NCBI GenBank assembly: GCA_000934665.2
Contig: KZ538017.1
Coordinates: 1-64,000 of the forward strand
Source of the DNA: Catajapyx aquilonaris
Lineage: Eukaryota
DNA: 64,000 bases
Direction of reading: 5' to 3'
Shown: in pieces, positions 3,452-46,855 of the stretch
Numbering within the stretch: the stretch's first letter is position 1
Layout of the letters: each line of letters starts with the position of its first letter
The notes under the pieces: generated by a model
The model's database searches: none
Told to the model about the DNA's origin: nothing
The model's input: only the letters and a program-made list of their open reading frames with translations
Position numbers and translations under genes: made by a program

Positions 3452-4498
3452 GGTCGTTCAGAAGGTTCTGAGAATGGACAAAAGGGTATTATTCCTTTAT
3501 GAACAAGTGGATTGATTGTTTCAGCAGGAGAGGTGTGTGGACTTGGGTGTGGAGGCACGTCTGATCGAGTCAGAAGATGCAGTGAGTGGAGGTATATCGA
3601 ATAAGGTGCCACTTTCCTATAGGCCGGGAGAGAGAACCTTTCTTTTTTGCGCTGTGAAATATATTATTAGATCTGCAACGCTGGCATACATCACTTATTG
3701 AAAGGGAAACAAAAGGAATCGGCAGATGCTCCAAACAGATGTGCCGATTCACTTAGCTTCTCTTTCTTTCCAAGGTGAATCCGACCCTTTCATAGTTTGC
3801 ATAACTTGCAAAAAGGGATAGTTGCGATTTCACTATTTTTCTGCGTGATGCTCATTTTGTGTTGCAAATTTAATGGATGATATAGCCGGTGACGTTATTA
3901 GTGACAAAGTGGGCCTTTAAAATTATTTAATATTTCGATGGAGTCATAAACTCCAACCTGTGTGAAAATATTTAACACGACATACATGATAAATAGCTGT
4001 AAATAAGAGTGGAATTCCGAAGTACATTTTCCCTGGTGACCGCCATTTTGACGAATAAATTAATTACGGGGCTAATTAAAGCCTAAAAACATGGGGTCTG
4101 GGGCTTTTTTTATGTTCGGGAAGGGATGTATACGTATAGTATCAGTTCCGTAAATATATGGCATCTTCTCTGCCAGAAGTGAAAATAATATTCGTGTGGC
4201 TCTTTCTGACGTTCCAACGAACCCCACTACATGGTCAGCTCAGGAAAAGACTCGTGACATTAAGGTCCAGTACCGTATTTATCTTTCTTGGGCCATTGAA
4301 GGTCCGGACCCACCCCGGGTAAAGGCATGGATTTTAATAATTTTCATATGGTACCACAGGGTTAATTTTTGGAAATAGAAACATGTGCAGCAAGGGTATA
4401 AAATAAGGGCCTATCAAGACAGGACATTCGGCCATTAGCCTATGATGTCCTGTACAGGCGCGTATAGGCAGAAAATAATATCGGGGGGGGGGGGGGGC

Positions 4499-4568
4499 NN
4501 NNNNNNNNNNNNNNNNNNNNNNNNNNNNNNNNNNNNNNNNNNNNNNNNNNNNNNNNNNNNNNNNNNNN
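4499..4568. other. Assembly gap flanked by poly-G
   Basis: Run of N between G homopolymers. Confidence 0.99.
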
Positions 4569-5452
4569 GGGGGGGGGGGGGGGGGGAGGGGTTCACGGTC
4601 TTGTGGGAGATTTGAATGGGTGCGTTTTTGATGAAATTGGTAGCACTTTTTCCAAAAAACTAATGAATTAGTAATTTTTAATGCTATTTCAGAATGTCCT
4701 GTATATCGTCGCGGTCCGGACAAAATTACGTCGCGGTCCGACAGTTGAATAGCCCTGCTGTAGACAGATGCGATGTCACACGAAATGGAACAATGTCACG
4801 TACGTGCTCTTCTTGTTCTTTGCTGCCTATATTGTTCGAATCCATGTTCGACGAATTACGTATCCAGACAAATGGTGGAGAGATCATGGCACAAATATAT
4901 TCATAGTAATAATCGATCTTCAAAGGTCGTATCATTGGCGAATAGACGTGTGCACATGTGTGCAGCCAGCTGCTGCTTCTCCACATCATCCGAGCACTCG
5001 ATCGAGCCTGCAGGCATGTGACTGCGTACACGTTGCCCATATTTCTCAATGTCGAGGAAATGGGCATCAGTTTCAAGGTTAAGGTGTCATTCATGCCCTT
5101 TGGACCTCATTTGGAGTCTGCAGCTTCAAAGCTTCTTTCTCTAGGGGCTGTAGTGTTTATCTAGATACCGTATAGTGAAAGTGTCTGGACCAGTTAGATA
5201 GTACCCCTCGAAGACACAATAAAGACAAGCCTTAAGATGCCCGCGACGTGCTGCAGTCGAAGCGTTTTCATGGGGCTGAGGCAGGACATATTAATTCCCG
5301 AGTCACGACCCACTCATCATTAGTTGTCTTAAAAAATTTATACGTATTCATTCACATGCACTTGACTTGATTGATATTGCTTGATGCTATAGGTTTCTGT
5401 GCACACACAAAAGGGGATAGGTGGTGGTGGTGGTGGGTATACATAAGTGTGC

Positions 5453-7617: not shown

Positions 7618-8949
7618 ATGAGCTGCAGGCCGAAGAGATGGATGCTGCGGGATGAGGTGGACGGGAAGGAAAAGGTTTGTGTCTGACACACTCGTGATGC
7701 CTTGAGAGTTGGCTTCAATGACATTGTTCCATATGTTCCAGGCCAATGGTCGCTTCCCCGACGAGATTCTCCTCAGGATCTTCAGCCACCTGGGCCAACG
7801 GGACCTACTGCTGGGGGCCGCCCTGGTGTGCAAGGACTGGGCCAGGGTGGCCACGGACCCTACGCTGTGGAAGGAGGTGGGGCTGCGCGGGTGGAAGTTG
7901 ACCATGGAGAGGGCCAAGGGACTCATCCGGCACATGACGTGGCTGAAGAAGGTGCAGCTGGTCGATTGGAGGGATCCCATCGAGAGTGTGGATGCACTGC
8001 TGCTCCTCATTGCAGAACGGCATCCCAAGTTGGAAGTGATGGACCTCTATCATTGCGAGTTCATCTCCTTGGATTGTCTGGAGCAGGTGGCCTCCAGGTG
8101 AGTAGGATCCTAATGTTCCAACTGCAATCTAATGTGCTCAGAAAGAATAACATCGACACAGTCATGCGTAATGCTTATTCCCTTTCCCTTGTTTTGAGCA
8201 GCTGCACTGACATTAAGGAACTGAGGGTGACGTGGGGCTATATGCTACAACCGAATCATCGCCACATATTTGACATGTTTGGCAGCAGTTCCAAACTGGA
8301 GAAGATCACTCTGGAGTATAACAGGTTCTCATCTGGTTCTGATCTGGACGCATCGATGAGAAGGGATTGGCCTCAACTGAGGGAAGTCAACATGTCCGTG
8401 CTCCATGGTGGTGAAGCAGAGTTGGAGGTGGTGTGCAGGAGTGCTGCAGGGTCTCTTCGGAAGCTTAGGGCTTTTCCCTTGGTTGGACCTGCGGCCCTGG
8501 TTCATCTCAAACAGTGCACTCTGCTGGAAGACTTGAGTCTCAAGGTACACAATTTAAGTCATCTGAATGCGGCCATTGGAAACCTGAGGAACCTCCGCCG
8601 GCTTGATCTGCATGTATTGGCATTAGACGTGGTCTGGGACTCGTTCTTCTCCATGCAGGAAGTATTTCAGAAACTTGAGAGGATTGACTTGAAGAGATCT
8701 CACAATGTAAGTGACGCCACCCTCTCTTTGATTGCCAGAAACTGCCCTGAACTGACCAGCATTTGCTTGCTCAATGACAAGATAACCAGGAATGGGCTGG
8801 GAGATCTTATTCTCACCCGATACGACAAACTCAAGTCTCTGGAAGTGAATTTTCAATACCGTACAGTACTTGTCCCCAGAGATTTGAAATTATTGCACAC
8901 CCTTTTCCCACGCGTAGATGTCGTACCATATGGTGGGGACACAGATTAG
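7618..8949 (+). CDS. F-box / leucine-rich-repeat protein (FBXL-like), 3 coding exons, 386 aa
   Basis: Exons 7618-7674, 7742-8097 and 8202-8949 join in frame through GT-AG introns (phase 0, phase 2). F-box motif FPDEILLRIFSHL...AALVCKDWARVATDPTLW. LRR units such as LEKITL, LRNLRRLDL, LERIDL and NVSDATLSLIARNCPELTSICL. Confidence 0.9.
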
Positions 8950-12299: not shown

Positions 12300-13140
12300 A
12301 AAAGTAGCGGTTTAAAGCAACTGCTTAAACTGTCATAATAACTGTTGAAAGTAGCTATTGAAAGTAACTGCTTAAACTGTCATAATAACTGTTGAAAGTA
12401 GCTATTGAAAGTAACTGCTTAAACTGTCATAATAACTGTTGAAAGTAGCTATTGAAAGTAACTGCTTAAACTGTAACTGTTGAGAGTAACTACTTAAACT
12501 GTAACTGTTGAGAGTAACTACTTAAACTGTAACTGTTGAGAGTAACTACTTAAATATTGTAACTGTTGAAAGTAGCTATTGAAAGTAACTGCTTAAACTG
12601 TAGCTCTTGAGAGTAACTACTTAAATTCTAACTGCTTAAACTGTAACTGTTGAAAGTAGCTGTTGAGAGTAACTACTTAAATTCTAACTGCTTAAACTGC
12701 AACTATTGAAAGTAGCTGCTGAGAGTAACTGCTTAAACTGTAACTGTTGAAAGTAGCTGTTGAGAGTAACTACTTAAATTGTAACTGTTGAAAGTAGCTG
12801 TTGAGAGTAACTGCTTAAACTGTAACTGTTTAAAGTAGCTGTTGAGAGTAACTGCTTAAACTGTAACTGTTGAAAGTAGCTGTTGAGAGTAACTACGTAA
12901 ACTGTAACTGTTTAAAAGTAACGACTTAATGGAGCTGGTTAAAGCAATTGAGTAATAATGATGATGATGATGATGATGATGATGATGTAAATACTGCTTG
13001 AAACCAACCGATTAAAAGTAACTGATTATACTGTAGCTGCTTTAAATATGTAGCTGCTTAAAGGTAACTGTTAAAAAGAGGAACTATTTTGAAATGCAAC
13101 TGCTCGTTAAAGTAGCTGTTTGAAAGTAGCTGTTTGAAAT
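12300..13140. repeat. AT-rich minisatellite (AACTGTTGAAAGTAGCT/AACTGCTTAAACTGT units) with embedded (ATG)n
   Basis: Directly visible tandem units with higher-order variation. Confidence 0.93.
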
Positions 13141-13333
13141 GGCAATGGGTTAAAATAAGCGGCTTATCAGTGCAATTTCCAACTGTGTGACGTGTGTGTT
13201 CTTTGTGCGTATTTCAGGTGTACGGAGCGTCGGTATGGCCCGACGAGAGGATAGTGTGGCATCGTCGGAGGCGTGTTGTTTGTTCTGATTGGTGCGTGCG
13301 AGTGCGTATGAGAGTGTGTCGTCGTCGTTGATC

Positions 13334-13777
13334 ATGGCAGACTGGTCGAGCAGTAGTACCGTAGCTACTACTACGATGACGATGGCGGGGGCCGCTGAAG
13401 AGGAGCAGGAGATGGGTCCGTACAACGAGACCTGGGAGGACGATTACGACTGGAGCAACTGCAGCAACGAGTACTGCGTGTCCAACGAGGACTACATGCA
13501 GATGATCGAGGACCACGTCCACCCGAGGGACTACGAGTGGGTCCTGATCGCCCTCTTCGGAGCGGTCTTCATCGTGGGACTCGTGGGGAACTGCCTGGTC
13601 TGCACAGCCGTCTACAGAAACCACGTGATGAGGACGGTCACCAACTACTTCATCGTCAACCTGGCCGTCGCCGACTTCATGGTCATCCTCCTCTGTCTGC
13701 CCCCGACCGTCGTCTGGGACGTGACCGAGACGTGGTTCCTAGGGGACATCCTCTGCAAGATCGTCCTCTACCTGCAG
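13334..13777 (+). CDS. AT-R: Allatotropin/orexin-type neuropeptide GPCR, coding exon 1 (N-terminus, TM1 to start of TM3)
   Basis: CSNEYCVSNEDY...YEWVLI, GLVGNCLVC, NHVMRTVTNYFIVNLAVADFMVILLCLPPTVVWDVTETWFLGDILCK are typical of arthropod allatotropin/orexin receptors. Ends CAG|GTCAGT, phase 0. Confidence 0.95.
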
Positions 13778-13837
13778 GTCAGTTGATCCTAATTTGTCAA
13801 CGAGAGTGCCGAAACTTGGCAACACTGCCAGGAACTC

Positions 13838-17300: not shown

Positions 17301-17399
17301 GCTGCTGATTGGCTTATTGTTACTGGAAAAAATAGCGCTTTGGCATAAGTAGTAACCGCTATTTGCAAACCCGTGAAAATACCCTGTTAAAATTAGCTG

Positions 17400-17790
17400 A
17401 TACCGTTATTTACAGCTATTTTATGCCAAAGTCGCTGCTATTTGCGAGGCCGTAAAATAGCGGGTTAAAAATAGCTGCTGCCGTTATTTGCAACTACTTT
17501 GGATATAAGTCGCTGCTATTTGCGAGGGCGTAAAATAGCGGGTTAAAAATAGCTGCTGCCGTTATTTACAACCACTTTGGATATAAGTCGCTGCTATTTG
17601 CGAGGCCGTTAAATAGCGGGTTAAAAATAACTGCTGCCGTTATTTACAACCACTTTGGATATAAGTCGCTGCTATTTGCGAGGCCGTTAAATAGCGAGTT
17701 AAAAATAACTGCTGCCGGTTTTTTTGGCCAAACTCGCTGCTATTTGCAAATCCGTAAAACAGCGGGTTAAAAACATCTGGTATAGCGGCT
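17400..17790. repeat. 78-bp tandem repeat, 4-5 copies
   Basis: GTCGCTGCTATTTGCGAGG recurs at 17431, 17509, 17587 and 17665. Confidence 0.93.
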
Positions 17791-20656: not shown

Positions 20657-20888
20657 GTGTTCTGACGTCCGCTGGAAAAAAAACCGTAACTCAAAATCCA
20701 CATCCCTTGCGGCGAGAAAAGTAAGAAAGTGTTTCCGAAAGCCACCAAGAGGTGGCGTTGAAGGAAGTGGGAAAAGGAACGGGCACCCCACCTCCATCTG
20801 TTGGATGCTTTTGGTACCACTCCTTTTTTTCTCTCCGCAAGGGAAAGTGGATGTTGAGTTACGGTCTTCTTCCAGCGGACGGCAGTGT
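20657..20888. mobile_element. MITE family C, copy 1
   Basis: TIR core CCGTAACTCAA..TCCAC.TCCCTTGCGG; homologous along its length to 29136-29366. Confidence 0.8.
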
Positions 20889-25159: not shown

Positions 25160-25760
25160 AGCATTCTCTGGAGAGAAGTGGTTCAAGAAATATGGCTTCT
25201 CCCCGGAGAGCGAGATATAACTTATCTTTGGGGAGAAGCTATTATCAAGCTGCCCTCCGCGGAGGGAAGTCGTTCAAGAAAACCGCCGAACATCACGGAA
25301 TGACCTCTCCGGAGAGAACCTATATCAGCCATAGGGATCCTCTCCGGAGAGAAGCCGTTTAGGTAATGTGGTTTTTTAAATGTGGTTTCTCTCCGGAGAG
25401 ACGCTATAGCAGTCATGTGGATCCTCTCCGGAGAGAGGCCGTTTAGGTAATATGGTTTCTCCCCGGAGAGCATGAAATGACTTCTCTCCGGAGAGTAGCT
25501 ATAGCAGTCATATGAATCCTCACCGGAGAGAAGTCGTTGAGGTAATGTGGTTTTTTTCCGGAGAGACGCTATAGCAGTCATGTGGATCCTCTCCGGAGAG
25601 AAGTCGTTTAGGTAATATGATTTCTCTCCAAAGAGAAACAAGCGGTCATATGTATCCTCTCCGGCGAGAAGTCGCTTAGGCAATATAGTTTCTCCCCGGA
25701 GAGAGCGAAATGACTTCTCTCCGGAGACAAGCGGTTTGATGACTTCTCTTCGGCGAGAGG
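25160..25760. repeat. Degenerate tandem array built on the palindrome CTCTCCGGAGAG
   Basis: More than 15 copies at irregular ~25-35 bp spacing; related arrays at 36370-36510 and 59805-60420. Confidence 0.9.
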
Positions 25761-27047: not shown

Positions 27048-28283
27048 TATATATATATATATATATATAAATGCGGCAGTGTGTAGCGGACTGCTGATAT
27101 CCGGGATTAGAGAGACGAAATGTAACCGGATATTGTAATCGGATTACCGCACTTTGTAACCCGATGACGTCACGTGCCTATAGTTTTATCGACTGGACCG
27201 GATGAGTAACGAAATCAAACTGGTTGTCCGGAATTAGCTACAGGTGGGGCCGCCGCCTCATTTGTCTCCGGGATACTCCACCAATTATTTGGCTGTCAAA
27301 CCGCTCTCTAATCACGCCGGATCCTCATTGAGTTATTAAGGATACAGGGGGTGTCACAATACTCGTCTGCTGCTCCGCCCACAACTCTGTGCCACATGGC
27401 CTAACCTAACCCCGCTATTAACAACCCCGGCTTACAATCGCCGCTACTTTTCAACGTGGCTGAAAATAACGGCGACTCTACTATTAGAACTTGCAGTGAT
27501 TCAGACATGCTATTTTTACCCGTGATTTATAGCCCATGAAGGTTAAATGTCCCACCGCGAATTGCTGTAAATTGGTGGAGCACTTTTGGCAGGTTGGTGC
27601 GCAATCGGAAACCATGATTGGCTCTCCCGATAATGCTCCGGAGCATCATCCATCAAAAATTCCGGAAGAGTGGAGAGTGCACAGGGGGCCATTGTTCGCC
27701 TAACAGAACTCAACCAACTCCATCGTCGAGGGAGCTGCCTTTTGTTGTATGCGCCCTATGAATACAATGCGATCCGGCCCATATTCCTCTTATTATTGGC
27801 TGCCATTGTTTGACGTTGCTTTTGTTGCAATCGGATGTAACCGATACATGAAAAAGATGTCCAATTTTTTTGATCTCATAGGCTGAACTGCTGCCTGCCA
27901 ATGTGTCTAGGGGCATCCGATGTCATGCGGGTTGCCGCGAGTGTCTAGTGGCAAATGTTTGTAACTCGTTATCAGTCCCAGTTGCGGACATTTGTTCCCC
28001 CTACATTGTTTCGATCCAACGAGTATTTTTGGCGGCCTGTGTGTCAAGCAGGAAACTGTAATAACGGATATAGCGAGTACATTGTGGCTCGGAGGCCAAA
28101 TCTCCGAGGCGGTTGGATGGTCACGTTCCTTCTGTGTGTGTGCTTCTTGGTCTCAAAGACACGGAGACTGTACTTTATAGGAGAACATCGACTCGGTCTG
28201 CAGTCACGTCTCAGACACAGCAAATATTGCCGGCCTCTTAAAAGAAATGAGATTATATATTGTTCCTTTCTCTTGTTGTTCAG

Positions 28284-28431
28284 ACGGTGTCGGTGTCGGT
28301 GTCTGTGCTGACCCTGACCTTCATCTCGATCGACCGCTGGTACGCCATCTGCTTCCCGCTCAAGTTCAAGTCAACCACGTCCAGGGCCAAGACGGCCATC
28401 CTCGTCATTTGGATCGTCTCTCTCCTGCTCG
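28284..28431 (+). CDS. AT-R: Allatotropin/orexin-type GPCR, coding exon 2 (TM3-TM4)
   Basis: TVSVSVSVLTLTFISIDRWYAICFPLKFKSTTSRAKTAILVIWIVSLLL with the DRW motif. TTCAG acceptor, G|GTAAGT donor. Confidence 0.95.
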
Positions 28432-28545
28432 GTAAGTCTTTCAACAGGGCCTTCAACTACACCTTCAACTAACAAGGAAACCCGCATAATTGGTGTCGTC
28501 GCTGTTTTTATTTTAATTTTGGATGGGACATTGTGCTCGCTGACT

Positions 28546-30224
28546 TTACATAAATATGTATGGCCTACCGGTCTTCTTGACATGTGATTGGACCTGCCTC
28601 ATATCCGACTTTATTATGTCCAGCATGGTGTTAACTTCCAGCAGGCTGTGTCTGACCCTCTCCAGCCTTAGCTTGACCGATGGCTCGACCTCTGGAACCA
28701 CTTTTGCCCTGACCTTATTTCCTTTCAACGAGCGGATCCTGTTCGGAATAACCGTGGTGGTCAGTGATTTGCTGCTGGCCGCTGCCTTGACCTTTCCTCT
28801 CAACTTTGTGTCTGATCCGGCCTTGACCCTTGACACATGGTCAATCCCGAGGTTTCCGAACCTCCTGCAGTACTCGTTGGTCACTCTGGCCGCCTGGGTG
28901 TCTCGCTGCATCAGCTTGCTGAGTTTGGACATGAATCGGTCACGGGTCACAGGCCCCCTGCTGTCTTCCTTCAGGATCGCATCCTGCAGGCTCCTGTACC
29001 TTCTGTACACCACGTGGTCGGGTTCACGCCGGGAACCGGGAATTCGACACAGTTCCGCTTCGTCTAGTTCTGTAACGGCTGTGGAAATAATTGCGCTAAT
29101 GTCACATTTGCTAATTTGAGCTTCAGGTCTGCTAACTCTGCCGTCAGATGTGAGAGGACCGTAACTCAATATCCACTTCCCTTGCGGCGAGAAGAGAAAG
29201 CAAGTGTTACCGAAAGCATCCAAGAGGTGGCGTTGGGAGAAGGGGGGAAAAGGAACGGCATCCCAACTCCACCTGTTGGATGCTTTTGGTACCACTGCTT
29301 TCTTTTCTCGCCGCAAGGGGAAGTGGACATTGAGTTACGGTCCTCTCATATCTGACGGCAGAACTTAGGCTTACTTACAGGGCGAGCTGGTGGTGAGTTC
29401 GTCGCTTAACCGACGCTGGTTAGCCTGGCGACATTGAGTTATGTACTCGCGCATGCGCCGGTCACCTGTAAGCAAAAAATGGGGGTTGTGCGCATGGCCG
29501 TCGAGGATTGGAAATAAGAGGGTTGGAACTACCTTACCGCCATGCTTCTTCATGGCTGAGGGCCACCTGTCTGCGCAGTCGCTGACGGTGGAGCTCAGGG
29601 TACGACGCTTCCAAGGGGCTGCCACTGCCGCGCGACCCATGCTGGCCTCCTTCAGGGCCACAGGTACCCTGCGTAATTTGGGGCCTAGACCCACAATGCG
29701 ATCGCCCCTGGCAACGGCCGCCTCGATGCGCATCTCGATCACGTCTGCCTTTCCTCTCGCATCGTTGATACCTACGGGCAGGAAAGCAAGGACTATAGTT
29801 ACCTCGAAAAGAACCTGCACACCCACACTCGCGCAGCTCCATTGTTCCGACAACAGTGTTGCCAGGGGGCCCAAAAATTCTGAGTTACGTTCCAGAAATT
29901 CGGCAACGTCGAAAACCTAATCACTTATCTCCAACACTACTCATGGCCGGGAAGCCCCAATAAGAGTAGTGTTGGAAATAAAGTGCAACGCCAGCTGTTA
30001 TTGATAATTCCAACCGTGCACGCTGCGCGAACTGTGGGGCGCACTCGGTTCTTTTGACGTGTCAGCGGCATAGGATATTATATGAGACACATTGTATTAC
30101 CTCTCTGAATGGCATTGGGATCGTAGCTGAATAACATCTTTGCGTCCGAGTCCTCTCGGGGACTGGCGACTGGAGAAAAGACTCGCGTGACCTGCCCTGC
30201 CCTCACTGGACGATAGCCATCCAT
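28546..30224 (-). CDS. Nested antisense three-exon gene, 349-aa basic protein of unknown function
   Basis: Exons 30224-30101, 29771-29379 and 29078-28546 total 1050 nt in one open frame through two phase-1 GT-AG introns. Start context GCGGCTATGG; AATAAA at 28512-28507. Confidence 0.8.
29136..29366. mobile_element. MITE family C, copy 2, inside intron 2 of the nested gene
   Basis: TCTGCCGTCAGAT.TGAGAGGACCGTAACTCAA and its reverse complement at the two ends. Confidence 0.85.
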
Positions 30225-30920
30225 AGCCGCCAACCTGCGCCGGTCGTCTCACAAGTTCTTTCGGAGCGATTCGAACCCGGTGGCCGTTGCCGCAACAATA
30301 ATATACTGCCACAACGCGCCGTTGCTTGACGACACTGGCATATCAAACCAACAGGCGCTGCTTTTATCTGCCCCACAACCGCCAGCGAAAAAAAAAAAAA
30401 ATCGCGGTGACTTTCAGCTGCTACAAATAACTTTGATGCTCTTTCTGTTCCGTCCTTGTGTGTATAGCCTAAGCGAAATGGATGCAGCTGGTCCAAAAAT
30501 AAGAGCTTGAGGCAGGTCCTGCAAAACACGTAGCATCCATTATGGCCGTCGCTTTATATCCACTAAATTTCCTCCATTCCCTTCCCTCCCCCCCGGTGGG
30601 TGGGAAATATGTTACTCTGTCTCTCTCTCTCTCTGTTGGTGGTTCCGAGAGATCTTCTGCAGACTGCATCACAAGTTCCATTGGGATGCAGCAGCTGTGC
30701 TGTCTCTTGGACGTGAAGATTTTTTAAGGAACCGCTCGGCCATACCCCCACAACTTTTCCCCGCAATGCGTGCCATTTAAATACCTCGATCCAACTCAAA
30801 ATGGCCATTAGCAATTTGGCAGATATTTTGGTTGTAGGAAATAATTATATACCGGTATTGTGTTGCGGACAGTAAGCTGCTTACATGGGGTTGATTTAAG
30901 AGGTAATTTGCTAATTGCAG

Positions 30921-31175
30921 ATATCCCCGAGCTGGTGGTCCTGGAGACTCGACCCCGACCCGACCTGGCCATAGTGACCCAGTACTTCACCCAGTGCATC
31001 GCCACCTGGAGCGACGAGTCGGAGATGGTGTACAGCGTGATGAAGGCCGTTCTTCTCTACACCCTTCCCCTGGCCTTCATGTCCCTCGCCTACTTCCAGA
31101 TCGTCAGGGTCCTCTGGAGGGCAGACATACCCGGAAGAAGGGAGGCCAACACGTCCAACAACTCGCAACAACACT
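30921..31175 (+). CDS. AT-R: Allatotropin/orexin-type GPCR, coding exon 3 (ECL2, TM5)
   Basis: DIPELVVL...TQCIATW...LLYTLPLAFMSLAYFQIVRVLWRADIPG. TTGCAG acceptor; the T|GTCAGT donor gives the phase 1 needed for exon 4. Confidence 0.9.
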
Positions 31176-31542
31176 GTCAGTTCATCGCTTTTTTTTGCGA
31201 CTTGGATCAAAAATGGCGGCTTCCATGGCACGACGTGGCCTACCTTTATATGAAAAGGGGTTGCCAGATGATTTTGAGGGAAACATTTCCTTCAAAATCA
31301 TCTGGCAACCCTTTCCAAGCCGCCATGTTTGATCCGTCCTATTTCTAATGCGTTTGGTGCTGTTTAAAAGGTGGCTGACACTTCAAATTATATGGATTTA
31401 ATTAAGCGACACAATAAGTGCTCGTGGTTTAAGTGCCAGGAACGGCGCTCAATTAGCGCCTAATATTCGCAGCATCCGTCGCCCCGACTAATTACCTCGT
31501 CTAATTAGCCGGCCTCGTTTTTTTTAAATGTGTGTTTGGCAG

Positions 31543-31753
31543 TGAACAACTCCTGTCGCAACAAGACGTCGCTGAGTTCGTCGTCCGGCGTGCCGTTGGT
31601 GCACGGGCATCCAGTGACGTCGTCGACGTCGTGCGGCGGAGGACAGCACGACGGTCCACTCCGGGCCCGTCGGAAGGCGGCCAAGATGCTGGTCGTCGTC
31701 GTCGTCATGTTCGCCGTCTGCTACTTCCCCGTCCACCTGCTCAACATCCTCAG
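31543..31753 (+). CDS. AT-R: Allatotropin/orexin-type GPCR, coding exon 4 (ICL3, TM6)
   Basis: LRARRKAAKMLVVVVVMFAVCYFPVHLLNILR; phase 1 in, phase 2 out. Confidence 0.93.
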
Positions 31754-31875
31754 GTATATATTATAGTGTTGAACTCACACTCATCATGCAGTGTATCAAA
31801 TTGGTGCTACGTGTACTGTGTTGCCAATATACCTATGAATGTGACACGCATTTTTCACCGCATATTTTTTTGCAG

Positions 31876-31988
31876 ATATATTTCCGCCATTCCCCAGAAC
31901 GACTTGACTTCCAGCTTTTCTATGATTTCCCACTGGCTGTGCTATGCCAACAGTGCCATGAACCCGGTCATCTACAACTTCATGAGCG
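31876..31988 (+). CDS. AT-R: Allatotropin/orexin-type GPCR, coding exon 5 (TM7)
   Basis: SHWLCYANSAMNPVIYNFMS with NPxxY; G|GTGAGT donor, phase 1. Confidence 0.95.
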
Positions 31989-33249
31989 GTGAGTACTTGT
32001 CTTCTTGTCTTCTTGTTAACAATACGTTGACTTTTTTTTAAAAGTGAAAAAAATAAACACAAAGGAAGCGGCGGCACAAACGCGCGTCATAGGCTTATAT
32101 TTTTGATTTCGGTTTGCACCATCATCATCGACATGGGAGTGGTTCATGCATCTGTGCACATGCACACCGCGCGACACAAGTGCAAACATACCTCGGCTGT
32201 ATGACTCTCTCTTCTGTAATTAAAATCCGGTTGGCTCCCTCCCCCTGCTGCTGCTGGCCGGAGTATATAGTTGTGTGTGCTCATCCCAATAGGAGGGGGA
32301 CCAATAATTGACCGACAGGTCGTGAATGGCAACCGCAAGCAAGGAGCATTGTTGCCACGGATGGGCGGATTCGAGATAACGGCGGTGACGTCACAGGCGC
32401 GACATTGGTCATCTGCAGGTCAGACGGAAATAGACCAATCCATGCTGATCGATTGCGGTCCAATCAGCAACAGTATAAGGTAGCACAAATTAGCCTCTAT
32501 AATACAAGCCATAGAAGCACCTCTCTTATTAGAGGTTCATTTGAGCTACTTCTTTTCTGCGACTGTACAGTATAGGCTACCACACCCTTTTCTGGACGTG
32601 CTGGCTGCATGTTGATTCATTTCTAACAGCTTTCTGAGGGGGGGCGAACAATCGCCTGTGAGTAGTGACCCACCCCCGCATTTCCAGGCCCTAATCCGGG
32701 CACAAATTCCGGTTAGTATAATGATGGCTGAATCCCCACTTAACGAAGAGATGTATGCAGATGAAAACGAAGGACCGGGAGCTATAGCTGCCCCAGACTC
32801 GCAAATTTTCCACAAATAAATCCGGGGAGATTTTTTTTTTGGTTGCCAATCGTGATATTTTATTCAGGGTCGTGAGGTCGTGACCTTGACCCATCCGGAG
32901 AATGTCACCTGCAGATGTCTCTTTCTCTCTCTCTCTTTTTGCGAATCTGCAGAGTTCTCTGTGTGTGTAAGAGCAACGGGTGTTCTCGACATCCCGTGAA
33001 GCAGAGATGGGGTTTCCGATATATACGCTTGGTTTCATCGCATGGTGGGGGGCGTTTCCGGTAAATTATTTACGGAAACTTCAAAAGGATCCGGAGGACT
33101 CGCGCAACTCGGAACAACGCGCAGACGCAGTCGATTCAATTAGCACATCCGTCGGCACGACCCCTTTTTTTCGCCAATTCATCTGTACGAGTCGTAAATA
33201 GCATAGGATTTAGATCGCTGCTCCAGAAAGCAGTTCCCTAATATCACTG

Positions 33250-33930
33250 CTTGACGGCAGCTTTTAAAAGCAGCGTGCGATAGCAGTTCTTGGGTATTCG
33301 CAGTTATTAATAGCTGCTCTTGAACGATCGCGGTTATTTATAGCATCGCAGGTTATTGTATGATTGCTGATATTAATAATTAATAACGGTTAATGAGTGC
33401 CGCAGTTATTCGCAGCAGTTAGTGAACTATCGCAGTTGTTAATAGCAGTTATTTGATGATCGCCGCTATAACAGTTATTAAACATCGCTGTTATAAGTCA
33501 TTGGATGCTCACATTCGTAGCAGCAGTTATTGAATAACACTGTGGCAGCAAGTTATTTGTAACAACTATGGAATTATCAGTTATTTATAGCAGTCAATGC
33601 AAGATCACTGATTCATATCGGTGAATGATCGCATTTATAACGGTTAGCGAATAATCAGAATAACGGTTATCAAACGATCGCGGTTATTTATAGCGACTAT
33701 TGAATGATCCCAGTTATTAATAGCTGCTCTTGAACGATAGCGGTTATTTATTAGCGGTTAGGGAGTAATCAGTGATTAATACCGGTTATCGGATGATTGC
33801 AGTTATTTATTGCAGTTAGTGAAAGATCGCAGTTATAGCGGCTATCGAATGATAGCAGTTATTGATATCAGTTATTTAATGATCACAGTTATTAATAGCA
33901 GTTAGTGAGCGATCGCAATTTGTATCGGTT
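33250..33930. repeat. Degenerate minisatellite (GATCGCAGTTATTAATAGC-like units)
   Basis: Repeated GCAGTTATT/GCGGTTATT cores throughout. Confidence 0.8.
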
Positions 33931-34876: not shown

Positions 34877-36663
34877 TTCTTTTGACCTGGCTGAAGATGT
34901 CTGGTGACCTATGTTGCTGCCGCCACATGTGTGACCTCGGGTCAAACCCTGACCTCTGAGAGGGCCGGTTTACATGTTCATCCTCCTCGACACTGCTGTG
35001 CCGCCTCCCCCACACATTCATACCCATTTTGTACCCATCCGACACTTGGGACAGACAGACAAGACATCCGTCTCTTTATCCAAAAAAAATGACCAAGAGT
35101 TTCAGGCCAAACCCGCGTTAACTTATAATTACCTAACCACCACAAACGAAATCAACTGGTATGACCTGACGCTTTTGACAACAATTTACTCGAGTTAAAA
35201 TGGTGTAGGGGAAAAAAAATTCCACGACACGAATGTGCAGGATTAAGACATATACCCTGACGTGACTTGGACTTAATAACCTCTAGGGAGAAAGGACTGG
35301 ATCATTGCTGCTTCCGACAAGGAGCAATACTCTTGTAAATAATAATAATAATAATCGACAGTATTTAATTGGTGCCAACAAATGCCCGGCCATGCATGTT
35401 TGCCAAAACAAGTGTGCCAAAAAAAAGAGGAAAATGGAAAGAAATTTATTGTTATTGTCGATGTCAAATGCATGCCTGGTCGATTATGGGGGCAATTTGC
35501 GCGCACTAACGCATTTTATGTACTGTAATTAAATGTGGGGGGGATTGACAGTGCGAGTGTTATGTTCATTGTGCTCATGTTTTAAAATATGTGGACCACT
35601 TTTGCTCAGGACGATAACGGATAAGGTCCGGTTGCCCATTTTCCGGCTGGAAAAAAAAAAAGTTTTACGGCCAGAAAATGTTTCCTGCAACCGGGAACCT
35701 GTATTGACGAATTGCAAGTTTAAAAAGCGAGAGTATAGTACAGAGTACTTTCCACAAGTAGACCATATTATTAATATTGCTGCTTTAATATTCCCAATTC
35801 CATGTAAACAGTAGTGCGCATTTCCATATGTACGGTATTGCAAAAGTTCGTTTGCACCAACCGCCAGGAAACATTTTCCTACCGGAAAATAGCCAGAAAA
35901 GTTTGTAATCGGTAGGAAACATTTTCGGCCGATTGCAAATTTTTCTGGTTGTTTTTCCGGCAGGAAAATGTTTCATGGGGATTGGCGCAACCGGATCGTA
36001 ATGTGGGATACATTCGTGTGTATTTAAAAATAAAATAACGCGTTGTTGTCAAGTTGTGTATCTCGATATCGTGCGTGTATCCTTGCGCGTTGTGATGTGA
36101 ATGTTATACTTGAACTCTCGACGTCGCAGCATCCGCCATTTGATCCCTTACAGTCGTGCCAATTCGCCATGAAATGTAACTCAGGATCTGGTTGTGTCAA
36201 AAAAAAAAACTTATATTTTAATGTAGTAAATCGAGTTTACAAAAATAAACCAGAAATGTCGTGAAAAACATTACAATCACGTGTATTTTCATCCCTTCTG
36301 TTATTTTCAAAGTTATTTTCCATTGTTATAATTATTCAAGTGGCGGTTATTTGCTCTTTTAAACAAATACGTCTCCTCCCCGGAGAGAAAATGGAGATAA
36401 ATGGCTTCTCCCCTGAGAGAAACTATAGAAAATGGTTTCTCTCCGGAGTGATGTCATTCCAAAAATACCCCTCCGGAGAGAAGCCATTTTCTAAACTTTC
36501 TCTCCGGTGTGATGCGATTTTTCATCAAAAAATAATCCGAATAAAATAACTCATACTGAAATAACATACTTGAAGCAAATCTTTTAAGCAACTAGTTGTT
36601 TTCCATTGTAATATTCAACTAGCAGCTATTTCGTTTTCAACTAACAGCTTTGTTTTGTTAATA

Positions 36664-36870: not shown

Positions 36871-37038
36871 TATTATAACCGCTACTTGAAAGCAGTTCTT
36901 AAAATCAGTTACATTTCGCGACTAGCTTTTAGTGCGATGCGACGTTGCCAGATTTGTGCATTTCTGTCCAGAATAATTCGTTGTTGAAACGTCGTGTATC
37001 GAGCCACTGGATTGGATGCTTGACCTTTGACCTTCCAG

Positions 37039-37229
37039 GCAAGTTCCGGAAGGAGTTCAAGAGGACGTTCTGCTGGGGTCGTGGTCGGGGTCGTGGCAAG
37101 AGTCGCAGGCAGCCTCACTCGAGCAGCACCTACGTGTGGAGGTTCACCAGGACAATGAGCATGAGCACACCTCGCACCGAGGAGCTGCCCATGACCTCCA
37201 TCGTCACCACCGCACCTGACCTGGACTAG
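37039..37229 (+). CDS. AT-R: GPCR alternative last exon 6b (isoform B, 453 aa)
   Basis: CCTTCCAG acceptor, phase 1: GKFRKEFKRTFCWGRGRGRGKSRR...TTAPDLD*. GC3-rich codons like the other exons. Confidence 0.88.
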
Positions 37230-38010: not shown

Positions 38011-41000
38011 CCGACATGTTGCCAAGCTTTGTTTGCTCACCGTGTGATCTCGGCAATGCAGCGTTGCCGTCTTCGAGTAAAATGTTCCGATCTCATTCTC
38101 TCTTCCTTTTCGGACGGAACAAGTGCATGACTGATGACTTGTGAACATATCTGTCGCTCTACTTACTGTGGTACCCTTGTAAAATGCGGATGGATATTAT
38201 AAAAAGGAAAGCGGTGGCATCTATTTTGAATCCCGCAACACCACCAACTGGTTTTTTAATCTCGATTTTAAATCCCACTTTTATAGCTCATCAACATTGC
38301 GCCTTTTTTTCTATAATAACACCCGTTTCAGAAGGCTTCTGCAGACGGTACTGGTATCTCCGTGGTCCGGTAAGTGTCTTTCGTCATATATTCAAAAGGG
38401 CGGGGGCATGTCAGCATTCAGAGAGTGGCAATTACAATAATGGCAAGGGTGCTTTCTGCCCAGAAGGAAAAATTGTCGCGTGTAATAATTATTTTATGGT
38501 TCGTCGAGATAAAAGTGTCGTACCCTGGAGCGCTGGAGGCGTTAGACTCTCTCCAGATTGCAGGCTATTTCTTTACGACTATTGCATGTCTTTGCACTGA
38601 AAATAGCGACGATATTTAGTGCAGATTTTTCCACCTTCTTATTTTCATCACAATGACAGGCGGTACGACAATTATTGTAAGAGGGCCTTCAACTATTGCT
38701 CAACCTGATATTGTAGCAACAGGAAACTCGAGACTTATTGGAGACCTTGAGACCTTTGATTGCAACCCGTTGCCTTATACCTTCCGGCCAATAAAACACT
38801 GCGAAAGACGACAGGCATGAATAACTGATCGCCCTTTGTTGTAATTGCGGTAATAAAAGTGCGAGATAATTCATCCAGACTCGACATGTCCGTGTGTGTG
38901 AGAGAGATCCTGATTGTTGGTTTGGATTAACTGCCAACTGGAACCGGAAGTGTGTCCTGTCCAGGACAGTTTCCGGACGTTTCTGCGATCTTGTCCGGAG
39001 TGTGAGACCAATTTCAGCTCGACCAGTAGACTTGGGCTCCGGGGGAATCGTATATCTTCAAAGTGGTCATGGTTTCCCCTCTTGACATCCTGGGTAGTGC
39101 CTGTTACATACCCTGAAGCAGCCATGCACTGTGTGATGATGCGCTCTATTATATACCCCCTTTTCCGACTACTCTCTGCTGGTCCCATCTCCAGGCGCCT
39201 GGAAAAGCCTGGAGCACTTTTCCAGGGTTTATTAGGCTATGTCGAGTCTCCGGAAGAAGGGATTCCGGATAAGGAGCTCTCAAGGTCCACTCGACGGATT
39301 TACACCCGGATATAAAAAAGTGCACTCTGTATGTCAAGGTTCGCAGATTGGCGATGTAAGTGTCATAGGCTGTATTTACATATGCGCAATGCTATAGATT
39401 TCAGCGAACCTACCATATAGAGAGCTTACCAGGTATCATTGATAATGCCAACCCTGCGAGCTGCGCGGACTGTGGTGCGCACTAGGTTGTGCTCATTTTT
39501 AAAATGATCCGCAATTATTCGAGTAACGAGGCTGCGTCGTAGGGCAAATAACATAAAGCGATGTTCTAATCAGTTCACCTTAGAAGTTTGTCTATACTCA
39601 TTATGACACTTTGTGCAGAGGGCGCCTTTAGCAACACAAGAAATCGCGACTAATTGTTGCGGATAAGCTGTCTTCATGTGACGGATGCAAATGAGGCGAT
39701 AATCCGAGAAATACGATAGTGGCCCCCATTTACACGATAGAACCTGATAGTCTTCCTGGTTCAGCCAGCTTTTGTTACGACCTGCGACTGGAGAGAACTA
39801 TAAGACCGTAACGAGCTCAGCGGGTCAAGGTCTGGCACGTGTCCTGGAGAAAATGCCTATATATAGACACGTGTCGCGACTTATGGTCTCGGATAGGACC
39901 TGAAAGTCTTCTCGGCTGTTATAATGGGAAGCATTCAGTCATCTCGAGCAGGGTGTGTTGCATACCCTTCAGCGACTTGTCTCAACTGGTTTACCCGAGA
40001 TGTATTGCTTCAGACTTTGCCAACTTCAGGCACTTGGGATTCATTCCGTTCTGACAGGGATTAAGCCGAGTCGCGTCATCCGGATATGCCAGAGAGGCAC
40101 GTCGTAAAAATGTGCCCGTAACAACAGCAGCGGTAACAAATAAATACGGAGCCTATACGTGTACATACTCGAAACGGTAATGTCATCGGTTACCGTTTCA
40201 TGCGGAATAATATTTGCGAGCAGGGAAAAAAAATGCTGGCAATTTCCGGCACTCGACCTTGGCATATTCCTTCCTGCAGCATGAAACCATAAAACAAAAA
40301 AGGCATAGTTGTCAGGGGTCAAACCCACCCCCTTCCTATATCCATCTCAAGGATCGCATATTTGGGGGGGGGGGGGGGTGACTCGTANGGTGACTCGTAG
40401 GCGAATTTTTAAAACTGTGTTGGCCCACAAAAGTGCGAAAAAAAATTCCGAGTTGCAAAAAATTCGATGTGTAGAGCTGTAGCGTGGATGTGATAGATAC
40501 AATTAATTCATTTGCCACAGCGAGTGGCTGTTTGTACAAGGTGGAAAAGAGAAGATTTGACCCGAATTTATGGCGGGGAGTTTCCGGGGAATAAATTTTG
40601 CAACCTAATGAGCAAAAAAGAGGGGGGGGGGCGGTTACTATTTGCGCGAATGAATCAATCTATTCGCCACATCACAGGGCTTGCGAAAAGTCACGCGGGT
40701 TTCAACCCTGCAAAATATCGCGAATTTTTGTAGCTACTGTAGTTTGCTTTTTTTAAATTTAAAAAAAAACACCCTTTTCCCTCCCGAGGAGCAGCTACAA
40801 ATAACCGCTCTTTTTTTATGTCGATGCTGCTGAGTATAATACCGGGGCCGATATTGGCTCATTACTTTCATGATCCGCATGTATAGGTACTGTGTAATGG
40901 TTCGAAAAGAGTATAAGGTGCTACTAATCCCAGTTTTTTGGAGGGGTGAAAAATGAGCGAGATGGTGAAGGATGAAGAGCATTCTGTACAACCCCCCTAG

Positions 41001-45511: not shown

Positions 45512-46598
45512 TGTGCACTTTATGTTGGAATAATTATCTGTGGACACAGCACCATGTGGTTAAGTTTATGTGGCCGCTGTGGTTCATTACTGGGCTGGAG
45601 TCGTAAAAGTTTGTACCGTATAAAACAAGTGGTCTCGGATGTGTGTAAGTACTACTGTAGGGGGGTGGGAGGGACACACGAGGGGCGTGGTCGAGACATA
45701 AAAAAACCTTTACCCGGAAGAGGAAGGGGCCAAGTGGGACACTCCCTTCTCTCTTCTTATTGCTGGTTAGATATTATATTGGACCCGCAGCGGACACTAA
45801 CGGATATCCAGGACTTAATTTTGCGCTGCCGGAATCAAAATTTAAAAAGCGTGGGGGTCTGCAGGGATTTACAGACCTTCGAATGGTCACCACTTAAACC
45901 GTGTAATTTACACTAATTCAGACCCTCGTTCGGTTTTACGATCCTCTTAAAACTCTTTTTTTTTTTTTCATCGCGCCTCATTGCGCTGTAACTGACTGTA
46001 CGAAATCCATTGCGACTCACCCTGTATCGCCTGCTCATTATCGGCAAATGAAGCACCGTTTTACGATCCCGGTTAAAAGAAAAGATTAAAAGCGATCGGG
46101 CTAAACTGAAATCCCGGATTTTAAGTAGGAGACTGGTATATTAAAACCGGATGATAAACGGGGTCTATTCCTAGAAACGTTTCTTTTTTTTCCCCAACAA
46201 TAATGCGAGGGACACGCGAGCTTAACGGGACATAAATCACTCGCTTTTTTATTACGCTTCCTGTTTAATCTGCGTACACAGTTGGACGCACACGCACGTT
46301 AAATGGGACACACACGGATTCGTACGTTACGTAATAAGATAAATCGAGCGCCATTTTCTGTAAGACGAGTGGTGTCCCGATTCCTGCCGAGTTAATCCGG
46401 ACACTTTAATCCGGGGAGGTGTCCCGTCTGTGGAAATGGGACAGAGACGGATTGGTTCTTGCTTTATTTTTCACTCCGAGGTTTTTGTTTGGGACAGATT
46501 GTGCAGCCAGCAATGAATGGACCTACTCGGGGGGGTCTCTCTTTGAATGGATGGGTCGCTTTAAAGAGATTGATCGAGGGGAAGGGGGGGGGGGGGGG

Positions 46599-46733
46599 NN
46601 NNNNNNNNNNNNNNNNNNNNNNNNNNNNNNNNNNNNNNNNNNNNNNNNNNNNNNNNNNNNNNNNNNNNNNNNNNNNNNNNNNNNNNNNNNNNNNNNNNNN
46701 NNNNNNNNNNNNNNNNNNNNNNNNNNNNNNNNN
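46599..46733. other. Assembly gap after poly-G; (TA)n follows at 46795-46850
   Basis: Run of N. Confidence 0.99.
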
Positions 46734-46792
46734 GCAATTCCGAGATAATTGTGCGAAAAAATGTGTTCCGCAACTCTTCGTGACCGTCGAGC

Positions 46793-46855
<63 letters not shown>

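Follow-up and report, generated by a model that had tools for sequence, protein, structure and literature searches.

The 64-kb stretch of DNA analysed here (hereafter the window) contains a long spliced reading frame on the minus strand, inside an intron of a plus-strand receptor gene. The question raised by this locus is whether the frame is a genuine nested gene or whether it is better explained as the chance extension of a smaller frame, as a frame left open by decay or composition, as mobile DNA, or as the shadow of coding sequence on the other strand. On the evidence set out below, we consider it probable that the frame is a genuine, intact and independently transcribed protein-coding gene acting as we propose, and likely that it is an ordinary opposite-strand nested gene whose family is not recognised.

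Architecture of the nested unit and its host

By homology, the host is an insect-type allatotropin/orexin-like neuropeptide GPCR gene on the plus strand. The two coding exons that flank the intron match Pfam 7tm_1 (3.5e-11 and 2.3e-4), and in blastx receptor homologues are contiguous across the intron (for example, P0122, residues 132-185 and then 182-271). The intron between coding exons 2 and 3 extends from 28432 to 30920 (2,489 nt), and both the nested coding sequence (28546-30224) and its putative poly(A) signals (28466-28512) lie wholly inside it, the nested unit filling about three-quarters of the 2.5-kb intron (Table 1). These Pfam and blastx assignments of the host exons bear out the proposal of the initial annotation, which placed a complete antisense unit in the receptor's second coding intron: the unit is contained in a single host intron and is read from the opposite strand. 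A limited literature search found no published gene nested in an intron of an allatotropin-type receptor.

The gene model of the initial annotation (three exons, canonical phase-1 splicing and an intact 349-aa frame) was reproduced in its coordinates, its GT..AG signals and its translation. Three minus-strand segments (30224-30101, 29771-29379 and 29078-28546; 124 + 393 + 533 = 1,050 nt) are joined across two GT..AG introns, both in phase 1, to give a frame of 349 codons plus a TAA (28548-28546). The frame starts with the ATG at 30224, and an in-frame TGA at 30251-30249 lies 24 nt (8 codons) 5' of this ATG. Within the second segment there is probably a third intron of 72 nt (29537-29466), which is in frame and contains no stops. 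Its acceptor is preceded by 15 pyrimidines in the 20 nt scored, and the 24 residues that it would otherwise encode are hydrophobic and unlike the remaining protein; its removal would give a product of 325 aa.

Table 1. Positions of the host exons, the modelled parts of the nested unit and its candidate signals in the window.
Feature	Position	Strand	Details
Host receptor coding exon 2	28272..28431	+	7tm_1 profile positions 62-116; donor G/GTAAGT at 28432
Host receptor coding exon 3	30921..31177, 3' boundary approximate	+	7tm_1 positions 135-183; acceptor TTGCAG/A at 30920/30921
Candidate core promoter	30332..30368	-	TATA-like GATAAAA 30368-30362 and Inr-like CCAGTGT 30338-30332, 32 nt apart
Coding exon 1	30101..30224	-	124 nt, 41 codons + 1 base, starts with ATG
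Intron 1	29772..30100	-	329 nt, GTAATA..CCGTAG, phase 1
Coding exon 2a (first part of exon 2 of the initial annotation)	29538..29771	-	234 nt
Candidate third intron	29466..29537	-	72 nt, GTAAGG..(T-rich)..TTACAG, phase 1
Coding exon 2b	29379..29465	-	87 nt
Intron 2	29079..29378	-	300 nt, GTAAGT..CCACAG, phase 1
Coding exon 3	28546..29078	-	533 nt including TAA; encodes basic stretch and C-terminal amphipathic helix
Putative 3' end signals	28466..28512	-	AATAAA 28512-28507, CA 28492-28491, GT-rich 28483-28466

The layout of metazoan poly(A) sites is the basis on which we read the AATAAA, CA and GT-rich elements as putative 3' end signals. An AATAAA shortly 3' of the stop and about 75 nt from the receptor exon-2 donor had been described before, and the measured distances agree: 33 nt separate the stop from the AATAAA, and the host donor GT at 28432 is 75 nt from the end of the hexamer. 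The predicted cleavage site would lie ~59 nt from that donor. Upstream of the frame, a TATA-like and an Inr-like element may constitute the core promoter of the nested gene; with the two strands of the window counted together (128 kb), the combination, a pattern picked post hoc, occurs four times. The 112-nt leader that would precede the ATG contains no upstream ATG. The context of the ATG, GGCGGCTATGG, is unlike what we take to be the A-rich arthropod consensus. Because a sequence 5' of the start codon, GGTTCGAATC, is similar to a tRNA B box, the 64-kb window was scanned for tRNAs, and no tRNA gene was found.

Both modelled introns contain a repeat insertion, and the local insertions are confined to them, as originally noted. 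Intron 2 carries a 226-nt near-perfect palindrome (29137-29362), the arms of which (45, 36 and 24 nt) are 89-96% complementary; it has a predicted fold of -174.8 kcal/mol (z = -21.7), and a second copy with 86% identity is present at 20683-20885. Palindromic, devoid of coding capacity and present in more than one copy, 29137-29362 is a palindromic MITE-like element. The foldback in intron 1 (~260 nt, 29801-30060) is less clear-cut: its outer arms of ~38 nt are interrupted by gaps, and a single 50-nt piece of it (30000-30049) recurs elsewhere, at 51314-51363 (90%). With the foldbacks subtracted, introns 1 and 2 measure ~69 and ~74 nt, close to the 72-nt candidate. Read-through of intron 1 meets a stop 7 codons past the donor, and read-through of intron 2 meets a TAA 2 codons past the donor; both stops precede the repeats, and the introns are therefore required irrespective of the insertions. 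Introns make up 12-18% of the pre-insertion ATG-to-stop span (~1,193 nt), and by simple arithmetic the probability that both insertions land in an intron by chance is ~0.014-0.03. Rfam returned nine weak hairpin matches, all far under gathering scores and all on palindromic repeats. An intron in the F-box gene nearby measures ~104 nt.

The predicted protein and searches for relatives

The 349-aa product is highly basic (K + R 67 of 349 residues, 19%; pI 10.5), with a net charge of +7 at residues 276-300, and residues 309-341 are hydrophobic at eight of eight a/d heptad positions, in line with the K/R-rich composition and C-terminal heptad pattern that had been reported for it. All searches and folds were carried out on single-exon peptides, for which sensitivity to a junction-spanning domain is lower. 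AlphaFold2, run with no alignment, left these peptides mostly unmodelled (mean pLDDT 45 and 42) and predicted one confident helix, at residues 132-169 of the exon 3 peptide (P0001; pLDDT 62-80). A bZIP identity was considered and rejected: there is no Pfam match, and a P-E-V-E-P break parts the basic stretch from the helix.

In keeping with the view that the protein has no recognisable domain, a Pfam search at E<=10 returned no family for any of the exon peptides (three of three). Word-based searches with exon 3 and exon 2 yielded no match against longer proteins, and phmmer with exon 3 against 1.84 billion representatives yielded one, which was spurious (P0004, a 46-residue, 27-bit alignment repeated nine times in a tandem-repeat zinc-finger protein, and hence a repeat artefact). 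In the PDB sequence search exon 3 had no match and exon 2 had one, at E=1.4. The ESM Atlas gave no usable match for either peptide; the Atlas recognition value of exon 3 (1587) falls under the level attained by 91 of 100 known-family proteins, and that of exon 2 (2454) exceeds it. Scans with exon 3 confirmed none of 30 pattern matches in viral contigs, none of 232 in metagenome contigs and none of 142 in prokaryote genome contigs, and an exact 32-base exon-3 pattern was absent from the metagenome contigs. The exon peptides have no further copies within the 64-kb window, where they are thus single-copy, and no inverted or direct terminal repeats flank the nested unit between 28000 and 31300.

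Coding signal and alternative readings

By its sequence statistics the frame is protein-coding beyond chance: exon 3 gives a strong signal, exon 2 a moderate one and exon 1 none. Exon 3 has a chi per codon of 0.218 and a GC3-GC12 of 0.207, compared with maxima of 0.146 and 0.124 among 255 chance frames, each of at least 170 codons. Its periodicity keeps the one expected phase across nine consecutive windows of the scan and is gone in intron 2 and in the 3' flank. For the whole of exon 2, chi per codon is 0.149 (99th percentile of 1,576 chance frames, 0.140) and GC3-GC12 is 0.104 (95th percentile of the same frames, 0.096), and in the first scan windows of this exon the periodicity peak is in the wrong phase. 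No codon periodicity was detected in exon 1, which is short. Purines occupy 65% of first codon positions, where G is the most frequent base. Codon log-likelihood, computed from an under-trained table (~480 codons of neighbouring genes), did not distinguish the proposed frame from the others.

Length was assessed by a search for spliced frames in real and simulated sequence. In the rest of the window the longest spliced frame is 834 nt, the F-box gene (1,215 nt) aside. A 1,050-nt spliced frame was reached in none of 40 simulated 64-kb strands trained on the window and in 13 of 40 trained on the locus. When exon 3 was held fixed, chance 5' extension to at least 1,050 nt arose in 4 of 300 window-trained simulations, in 11 of 300 trained on local non-coding sequence and in 21 of 300 trained on the locus, which makes exons 1 and 2 less secure.

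It is conceivable, then, that only the 3' part is genuine, whether as exon 3, as a frame from an internal ATG or with other 5' exons, and that exons 1 and 2 are a chance extension assembled from among many GT/AG pairs; we consider this unlikely. Strong, phase-consistent periodicity is indeed limited to about 28990-28550, with a moderate signal in exon 2 and none in exon 1, and the simulated extensions just described point in the same direction, as do alternative acceptors that yield a longer, 1,221-nt chain, so that the junctions are not uniquely fixed by sequence. However, the chi per codon of exon 2 exceeds the 99th percentile of chance frames, its Atlas recognition value is protein-like, and the modelled acceptors have 15 of 20 pyrimidines compared with 10 of 20 for the alternative at 29879; the residual intron sizes (~69, 72 and 74 nt) are mutually consistent, and at the 5' end a stop lies in frame upstream of the start codon and the leader contains no ATG. 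Quite unlikely, in our view, is a frame without function, either a former gene in decay that has so far stayed open or a frame that is open by chance because the local sequence is rich in GC and poor in stops. The intact start, stop, splice and poly(A) signals speak against it, as does the location of both repeat insertions in introns, and the periodicity of exon 3 is greater than that of all 255 chance frames, such that composition alone is insufficient. What this explanation has in its favour is that the searches and models gave neither a homologue nor a domain nor a confident fold, that GC-rich non-coding DNA would also translate into an R-rich product, and that 13 of 40 locus-like strands attain the length of the frame; this last frequency, however, is per 64 kb and corresponds to about 1% once scaled to the 2.3-kb locus, and with window-like composition it is zero.

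An origin from a transposon or virus, with the frame as a DNA transposon's accessory ORF, as a domesticated copy or as an endogenous viral element in the intron, appears very improbable. At least two mobile foldback elements have been drawn to the same intron, and the accessory ORFs of some DNA transposons typically encode basic proteins that belong to no known family. A match to a transposon-encoded ORF, which the initial annotation had named as the finding that would count against a gene, was looked for, and support came neither from Pfam (no family for any of the three exon peptides) nor from the viral contigs (none of the 30 pattern matches confirmed), extra copies in the 64 kb or flanking terminal repeats; the two or three spliceosomal introns, moreover, have the host's minimal size. 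That it is the plus strand that codes here, with 191- and 160-codon frames opposite exons 3 and 2 serving as alternative 3' exons of the receptor, seems to us extremely improbable, even though both frames are open and show 3-base periodicity (0.193/0.188 and 0.171/0.078) and a lenient chain search joins the receptor exon-2 donor (28431) to 28624-29119. Their third positions coincide with the third positions of the minus-strand frame, as is usual for a 'shadow' frame, and their composition is L/S/T-rich (KL 0.22-0.31), whereas the minus-strand peptides are near average protein composition (KL 0.088). Neither plus-strand frame matches Pfam, no splice chain links the two to each other, and in the alignments with receptor homologues exon 2 is followed directly by exon 3.

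Age, proposed function and comparison with known nested genes

The description of the gene as an orphan, and as young, is not supported as worded. No homologue was found, yet such a status does not follow: the receptor, although highly conserved, likewise has no match above ~75% identity, so that the databases must lack close relatives. The best database identity is 53-75% for the receptor exon and ~67% over all receptor exons, with no self match. With no close relatives represented, a disordered protein that evolves fast would escape detection at any age. Young de novo frames are usually short, with one or two exons and little codon bias. The nested frame resembles de novo genes in that no homologue was found for it, in its basic, predicted disordered product and in its intronic antisense location, but its length (325-349 aa), its two or three introns of canonical type and minimal size and its clear codon-position bias are unlike what a very young de novo frame would show. 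Homology detection failure has been put forward, in the available text of Weisman et al. 2020 (PMC7660931), as an explanation of lineage-specific 'orphan' genes, and the situation here is alike in combining no detectable homologue in very large databases with a large distance to the nearest annotated species.

We regard as improbable a recent, lineage-specific origin from the receptor's intronic DNA or from captured DNA, in which head-on transcription, running through three-quarters of the intron and ending ~59 nt from the exon-2 donor, would gate transcription or splicing of the receptor. If this were true, an antisense switch specific to the lineage would be built into a hormone-receptor gene and would encode a new basic protein as well; the palindromes, which have 100-bp stems and are common to the two pre-mRNAs, might contribute double-stranded RNA. 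A regulatory link between the nested gene and the allatotropin-type receptor is speculation.

Under the preferred reading of an ordinary opposite-strand nested gene, transcription would start from the gene's own promoter around 30336-30368 and produce an mRNA of ~1.2 kb. The product would be very basic and mostly disordered, and it would bind a polyanion through its R/K-rich stretches, with nucleic acid or chromatin as the most likely partner; it may also self-associate through the amphipathic helix near its C terminus (about residues 305-342). The gene would be a member of a fast-evolving family whose relatives are beyond database reach. Since the two genes would be transcribed head-on through the same 1.9 kb, we expect receptor and nested gene to be expressed in different tissues, as for Drosophila pairs, and not that one regulates the other.

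In D. melanogaster, according to the available text of Lee & Chang 2013 (PMC3814207), nested genes account for ~10% of all genes, and 71% of these are on the strand opposite to the host; nested genes evolve faster, 43.9% of them peak in testis, and their hosts are brain-enriched. The divergence in expression of nested pairs is attributed to transcriptional interference in the corresponding portion of Assis 2016 (PMC5174743). As far as these sources go (PMC3814207, PMC5174743), the locus is like the Drosophila opposite-strand cases in that a small gene with few, short introns sits inside one intron of a larger gene, in that the host is of neural type and in that the nested product is fast-evolving or unrecognisable. 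It differs from them in belonging to another arthropod, one that has no close annotated relative, and in its short host intron (2.5 kb), about three-quarters of which is occupied. A further parallel is 2mit, which is described (PMC3786989, in the text available) as lying in the 11th intron of Drosophila timeless2 in the opposite orientation and as having a role in behavioural plasticity; here too a protein-coding gene occupies a host intron in the opposite transcriptional orientation, and no sequence relation is expected.

Opposite-strand nesting in neural host genes is already common, and the locus addresses no open question yet. Should the gene be genuine, it is probably absent from the genome's annotation, as no self match appeared in protein collections, and the arthropod 'dark proteome' gains a further protein whose family is not recognised. 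It would also offer a clean case for gene-model curation: all three introns would be minimal and in phase 1, foldbacks have inflated two, and the other is in frame and easily missed.

A spliced minus-strand coding unit inside a receptor intron

The host is a plus-strand gene for an allatotropin/orexin-like GPCR. Its first coding exon (13319-13780) has 522 protein matches at E ≤ 1e-10, and the 120 listed of these, drawn from insects, spiders, ticks and crustaceans and 53-75% identical, carry the names allatotropin receptor, orexin receptor-like or neuropeptide receptor A5/A16. Receptor exons were placed by blastx of 13000-40000 against the receptor-like proteins matched by this first exon. Homologue residues are continuous across the intron that carries the nested unit (28432-30920, 2,489 nt), and both flanking exons match the Pfam 7tm_1 profile (28272-28431, profile positions 62-116, E 3.5e-11; from 30921 onward, positions 135-183, E 2.3e-4). 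The placement of the unit in intron 2 of a neuropeptide receptor, as proposed in the initial annotation, is thus right for the coding exons.

Re-reading of 28300-30500 on the minus strand and rejoining of the segments reproduced all the annotated coordinates: the three exons give 1,050 nt, or 349 codons and a TAA. The ATG is preceded in frame by a TGA 24 nt (8 codons) upstream. Downstream of the stop, AATAAA, then CA, then a GT-rich stretch follow the ordinary layout of a metazoan poly(A) site. Upstream, a TATA-like GATAAAA lies 32 nt before an Inr-like CCAGTGT on the minus strand; this promoter-like pair was picked post hoc, and its pattern, chosen likewise, occurs four times in 128 kb. It would define a putative 112-nt leader without an ATG, and the unit from TATA-like motif to CA fills 1,878 nt of the host intron. 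The sequence thus read shows a spliced coding unit, intact and with 3' signals of its own, on the minus strand inside the receptor intron; with moderate confidence we take it to be an independent gene. Within the putative leader, GGTTCGAATC at 30260-30285 (minus strand) resembles a tRNA B box consensus; ARAGORN finds no tRNA gene anywhere in the window.

Coordinates of the nested unit and of the host receptor exons
Feature	Position	Strand	Details
Nested coding exon 1	30224-30101	-	124 nt, joined from coordinates
Nested coding exon 2	29771-29379	-	393 nt, joined from coordinates
Nested coding exon 3	29078-28546	-	533 nt, joined from coordinates
Nested intron 1	between exons 1 and 2	-	329 nt, GTAATA..CCGTAG, phase 1
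Nested intron 2	between exons 2 and 3	-	300 nt, GTAAGT..CCACAG, phase 1
Candidate third intron	29537-29466, inside exon 2	-	72 nt, GTAAGG..T-rich..TTACAG, phase 1
Nested poly(A) signals	AATAAA 28512-28507; CA 15 nt on; GT-rich 28483-28466	-	
Receptor exons (approximate)	13442-13777, 28272-28433, 30911-31177, 31488-31763, 31856-31996, 37002-37226	+	blastx

Coding signal, coding strand and chance

Every ATG served as a start in a search for spliced frames, which permitted no more than two introns (40-600 nt each) and defined splice sites leniently: GT[AG]A[GT] for donors and, for acceptors, a YAG preceded by 8 or more pyrimidines in 15. The longest minus-strand chain in the window is the nested locus (1,221 nt if the greediest sites are taken, 1,050 nt for those of the initial annotation); the next-longest chain anywhere in the window, the F-box gene (1,215 nt) excepted, is 834 nt. 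Chains of at least 1,050 nt arose in 0 of 40 simulated 64-kb strands under a second-order Markov model of the window, and in 13 of 40 under a stop-poor, locus-trained model, or ~1% when scaled to the 2.3-kb locus.

Three-base periodicity tests the frame more stringently, since it cannot arise from composition by itself. Exon 3 reaches a chi-square per codon of 0.218 and a GC3 minus GC1,2 of 0.207, against chance maxima of 0.146 and 0.124 among 255 frames of at least 170 codons in locus-like sequence. The exon 2 values (0.149 and 0.104) exceed the 99th and 95th percentiles, respectively, of 1,576 chance frames of at least 120 codons, and no three-base periodicity was detected in exon 1 (41 codons). 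In sliding windows, the exon 3 signal keeps the expected phase through nine consecutive windows and is gone in intron 2 and the 3' flank; that of exon 2 is weak, its first two windows peaking in another phase. When exon 3 was kept and the upstream sequence randomised, chains that ran for at least 1,050 nt to the real stop were recovered in 4 of 300 trials with a window-trained model, 11 of 300 with one trained on local introns and flanks, and 21 of 300 with a locus-trained one. Periodicity and chance extension together make exon 3 a solid coding exon, whereas the coding status of exons 1 and 2 is probable but not secure.

The plus strand offers open frames opposite the nested exons (28544-29119, 191 codons; 29438-29920, 160 codons). 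The third codon positions of these 'shadow' frames fall on those of the minus-strand frame, which is why they show the periodicity too, and an automated prediction could wrongly add them to the receptor. They are rich in L, S and T (Kullback-Leibler divergence 0.22-0.31 from Swiss-Prot frequencies), have no Pfam match and are linked by no splice chain in the spliced-frame search, and we consider them very unlikely to be coding. The minus-strand peptides lie near average protein composition (divergence 0.088), purines make up 65% of the first codon positions in the minus frame and G is the most frequent base there, and start, splice sites, stop and poly(A) signal are all on the minus strand. 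These observations point to the minus strand as the coding one. A transposon origin, the alternative raised by the initial annotation, found no support: Pfam searches with the exon peptides matched no mobile-element domain or transposon-encoded ORF, neither inverted nor direct repeats were found flanking the unit, and its exons are single-copy within the window. As far as can be seen, the unit is not a transposon ORF.

Introns and the insertions within them

The initial annotation had both repeat insertions confined to introns, and both were located there. Intron 2 holds a 226-nt near-perfect palindrome (29137-29362; arms of 45, 36 and 24 nt, 89-96% complementarity), a MITE-like element with a second copy at 20683-20885 (86% identity). 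As RNA it forms a predicted ~100-bp stem (-174.8 kcal/mol, z = -21.7), with sub-threshold miRNA-family matches only; being palindromic, it would fold in receptor and nested pre-mRNA alike. Intron 1 contains an inner inverted repeat (18 nt) and two outer arms (29801-29837 and 30022-30060), and 50 nt of it recur at 51314-51363 with 90% identity. Without the insertions, introns 1 and 2 would measure ~69 and ~74 nt. If either donor is read through, a stop codon is reached ahead of the repeat; the introns are therefore needed regardless of the insertions, and the argument is not circular. Both insertions fall within the intronic 12-18% of the pre-insertion ATG-to-stop span (~1,193 nt), for which our own arithmetic gives a chance of ~0.014-0.03, mild evidence that selection removed exon-disrupting insertions.

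The 72-nt stretch inside exon 2 is in frame and without a stop, and its 24 encoded residues are hydrophobic, unlike the remaining protein. Short introns are normal in this genome, because that of the neighbouring F-box gene is ~104 nt. On balance we favour a third intron here, giving four exons and 325 residues.

Predicted product, age and relation to the receptor

The predicted protein (349 or 325 residues) agrees with the earlier description of a basic product with a C-terminal heptad pattern: pI 10.5, GRAVY -0.56, 67 K+R to 38 D+E, a net +7 stretch at residues 276-300, and hydrophobic residues at 8 of 8 a/d positions in the last 40. It lacks a hydrophobic N-terminus. AlphaFold2 on single sequences gives mean pLDDT values of 45 (exon 3 peptide) and 42 (exon 2 peptide), only the C-terminal helix (exon 3 peptide residues 132-169) reaching 62-80. 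That no domain is recognisable was borne out with single-exon peptides, a design by which a junction-spanning domain could have been missed: Pfam gave no family for any of the three at E ≤ 10, PDB sequence searches found no match to exon 3 and one to exon 2 (E = 1.4), neither of these two peptides had a usable match in the Atlas, and word-based protein searches returned no match. A phmmer search of 1.84 billion representatives returned a single match, a zinc-finger protein, rejected as a relative since its score adds up one match (46 residues, 27 bits) over nine tandem repeats. Viral, metagenome and prokaryote contig scans gave no confirmed match to the nested-gene sequence.

The properties of de novo genes fit poorly with a frame of this length that has two or three minimal introns and a codon-position bias, which speaks against its having arisen de novo very recently. 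The most conserved receptor exon has nothing above 75% identity and no self match among the matches listed, and the best identities over all receptor exons are ~67% (stick insects, a mayfly and a whitefly; blastx). It follows that even the closest annotated genome is a distant one and that the animal's own proteins are missing from the collections. The negative searches do not show that the gene is young; so far from annotated relatives, a protein that is disordered and evolves fast should escape detection, the homology detection failure put forward for missing homologues in PMC7660931.

Tentatively, the product may be a disordered basic protein that could bind a polyanion (nucleic acid or chromatin) and might self-associate via its C-terminal helix. 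The arginine-rich N-terminus has just one acidic residue among its first 23 and would likewise be compatible with a mitochondrial presequence. The initial annotation had suggested interference with the receptor. Among Drosophila nested genes, PMC3814207 reports 71% on the opposite strand, fast evolution, highest expression in testis for 43.9% and brain-enriched hosts, and PMC5174743 attributes expression divergence of nested pairs to selection against transcriptional interference. By analogy with these patterns, tissue-exclusive expression rather than regulation of the receptor would be most likely here. The reading of the unit as a gene is probably right: exon 3, at the least, has a good likelihood of being part of a real gene. 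We lean, less strongly, towards the gene model and mechanism as stated. As an opposite-strand nested gene with no recognised family, it would be of a kind that is common.

Several other features were observed in the window. A two-exon F-box gene (7706-8949, plus strand) has an F-box-like domain at 7706-8097 (Pfam E 7.4e-15), a GTGAGT donor at 8098, an acceptor near 8201 and a second exon with a leucine-rich frame to 8949 that has no Pfam match. In the next receptor intron, a short hairpin or palindrome (31248-31320; arms 31269-31283 and 31286-31300) has weak miRNA-family matches, the best reaching 39 bits where the gathering score is 80. Related tandem arrays of 32-36-nt, CTCTCCGGAGAGAAG-type units (25305-25704, 36376-36448 and 59805-59998) yield minus-strand open frames of 185 and 105 codons that are repeat artefacts. 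Minisatellites with periods of 13-78 nt lie upstream of the receptor gene, inside its long first intron and in the downstream region (12301-12922, 17358-17717 and 33659-33917). Assembly gaps (N runs, 207 in all, at 4400-4700, 40350-40400 and 46560-46750) have poly-G/C or poly-P-coding stretches at their flanks, as well as a (TA)28 microsatellite (46795-46850).
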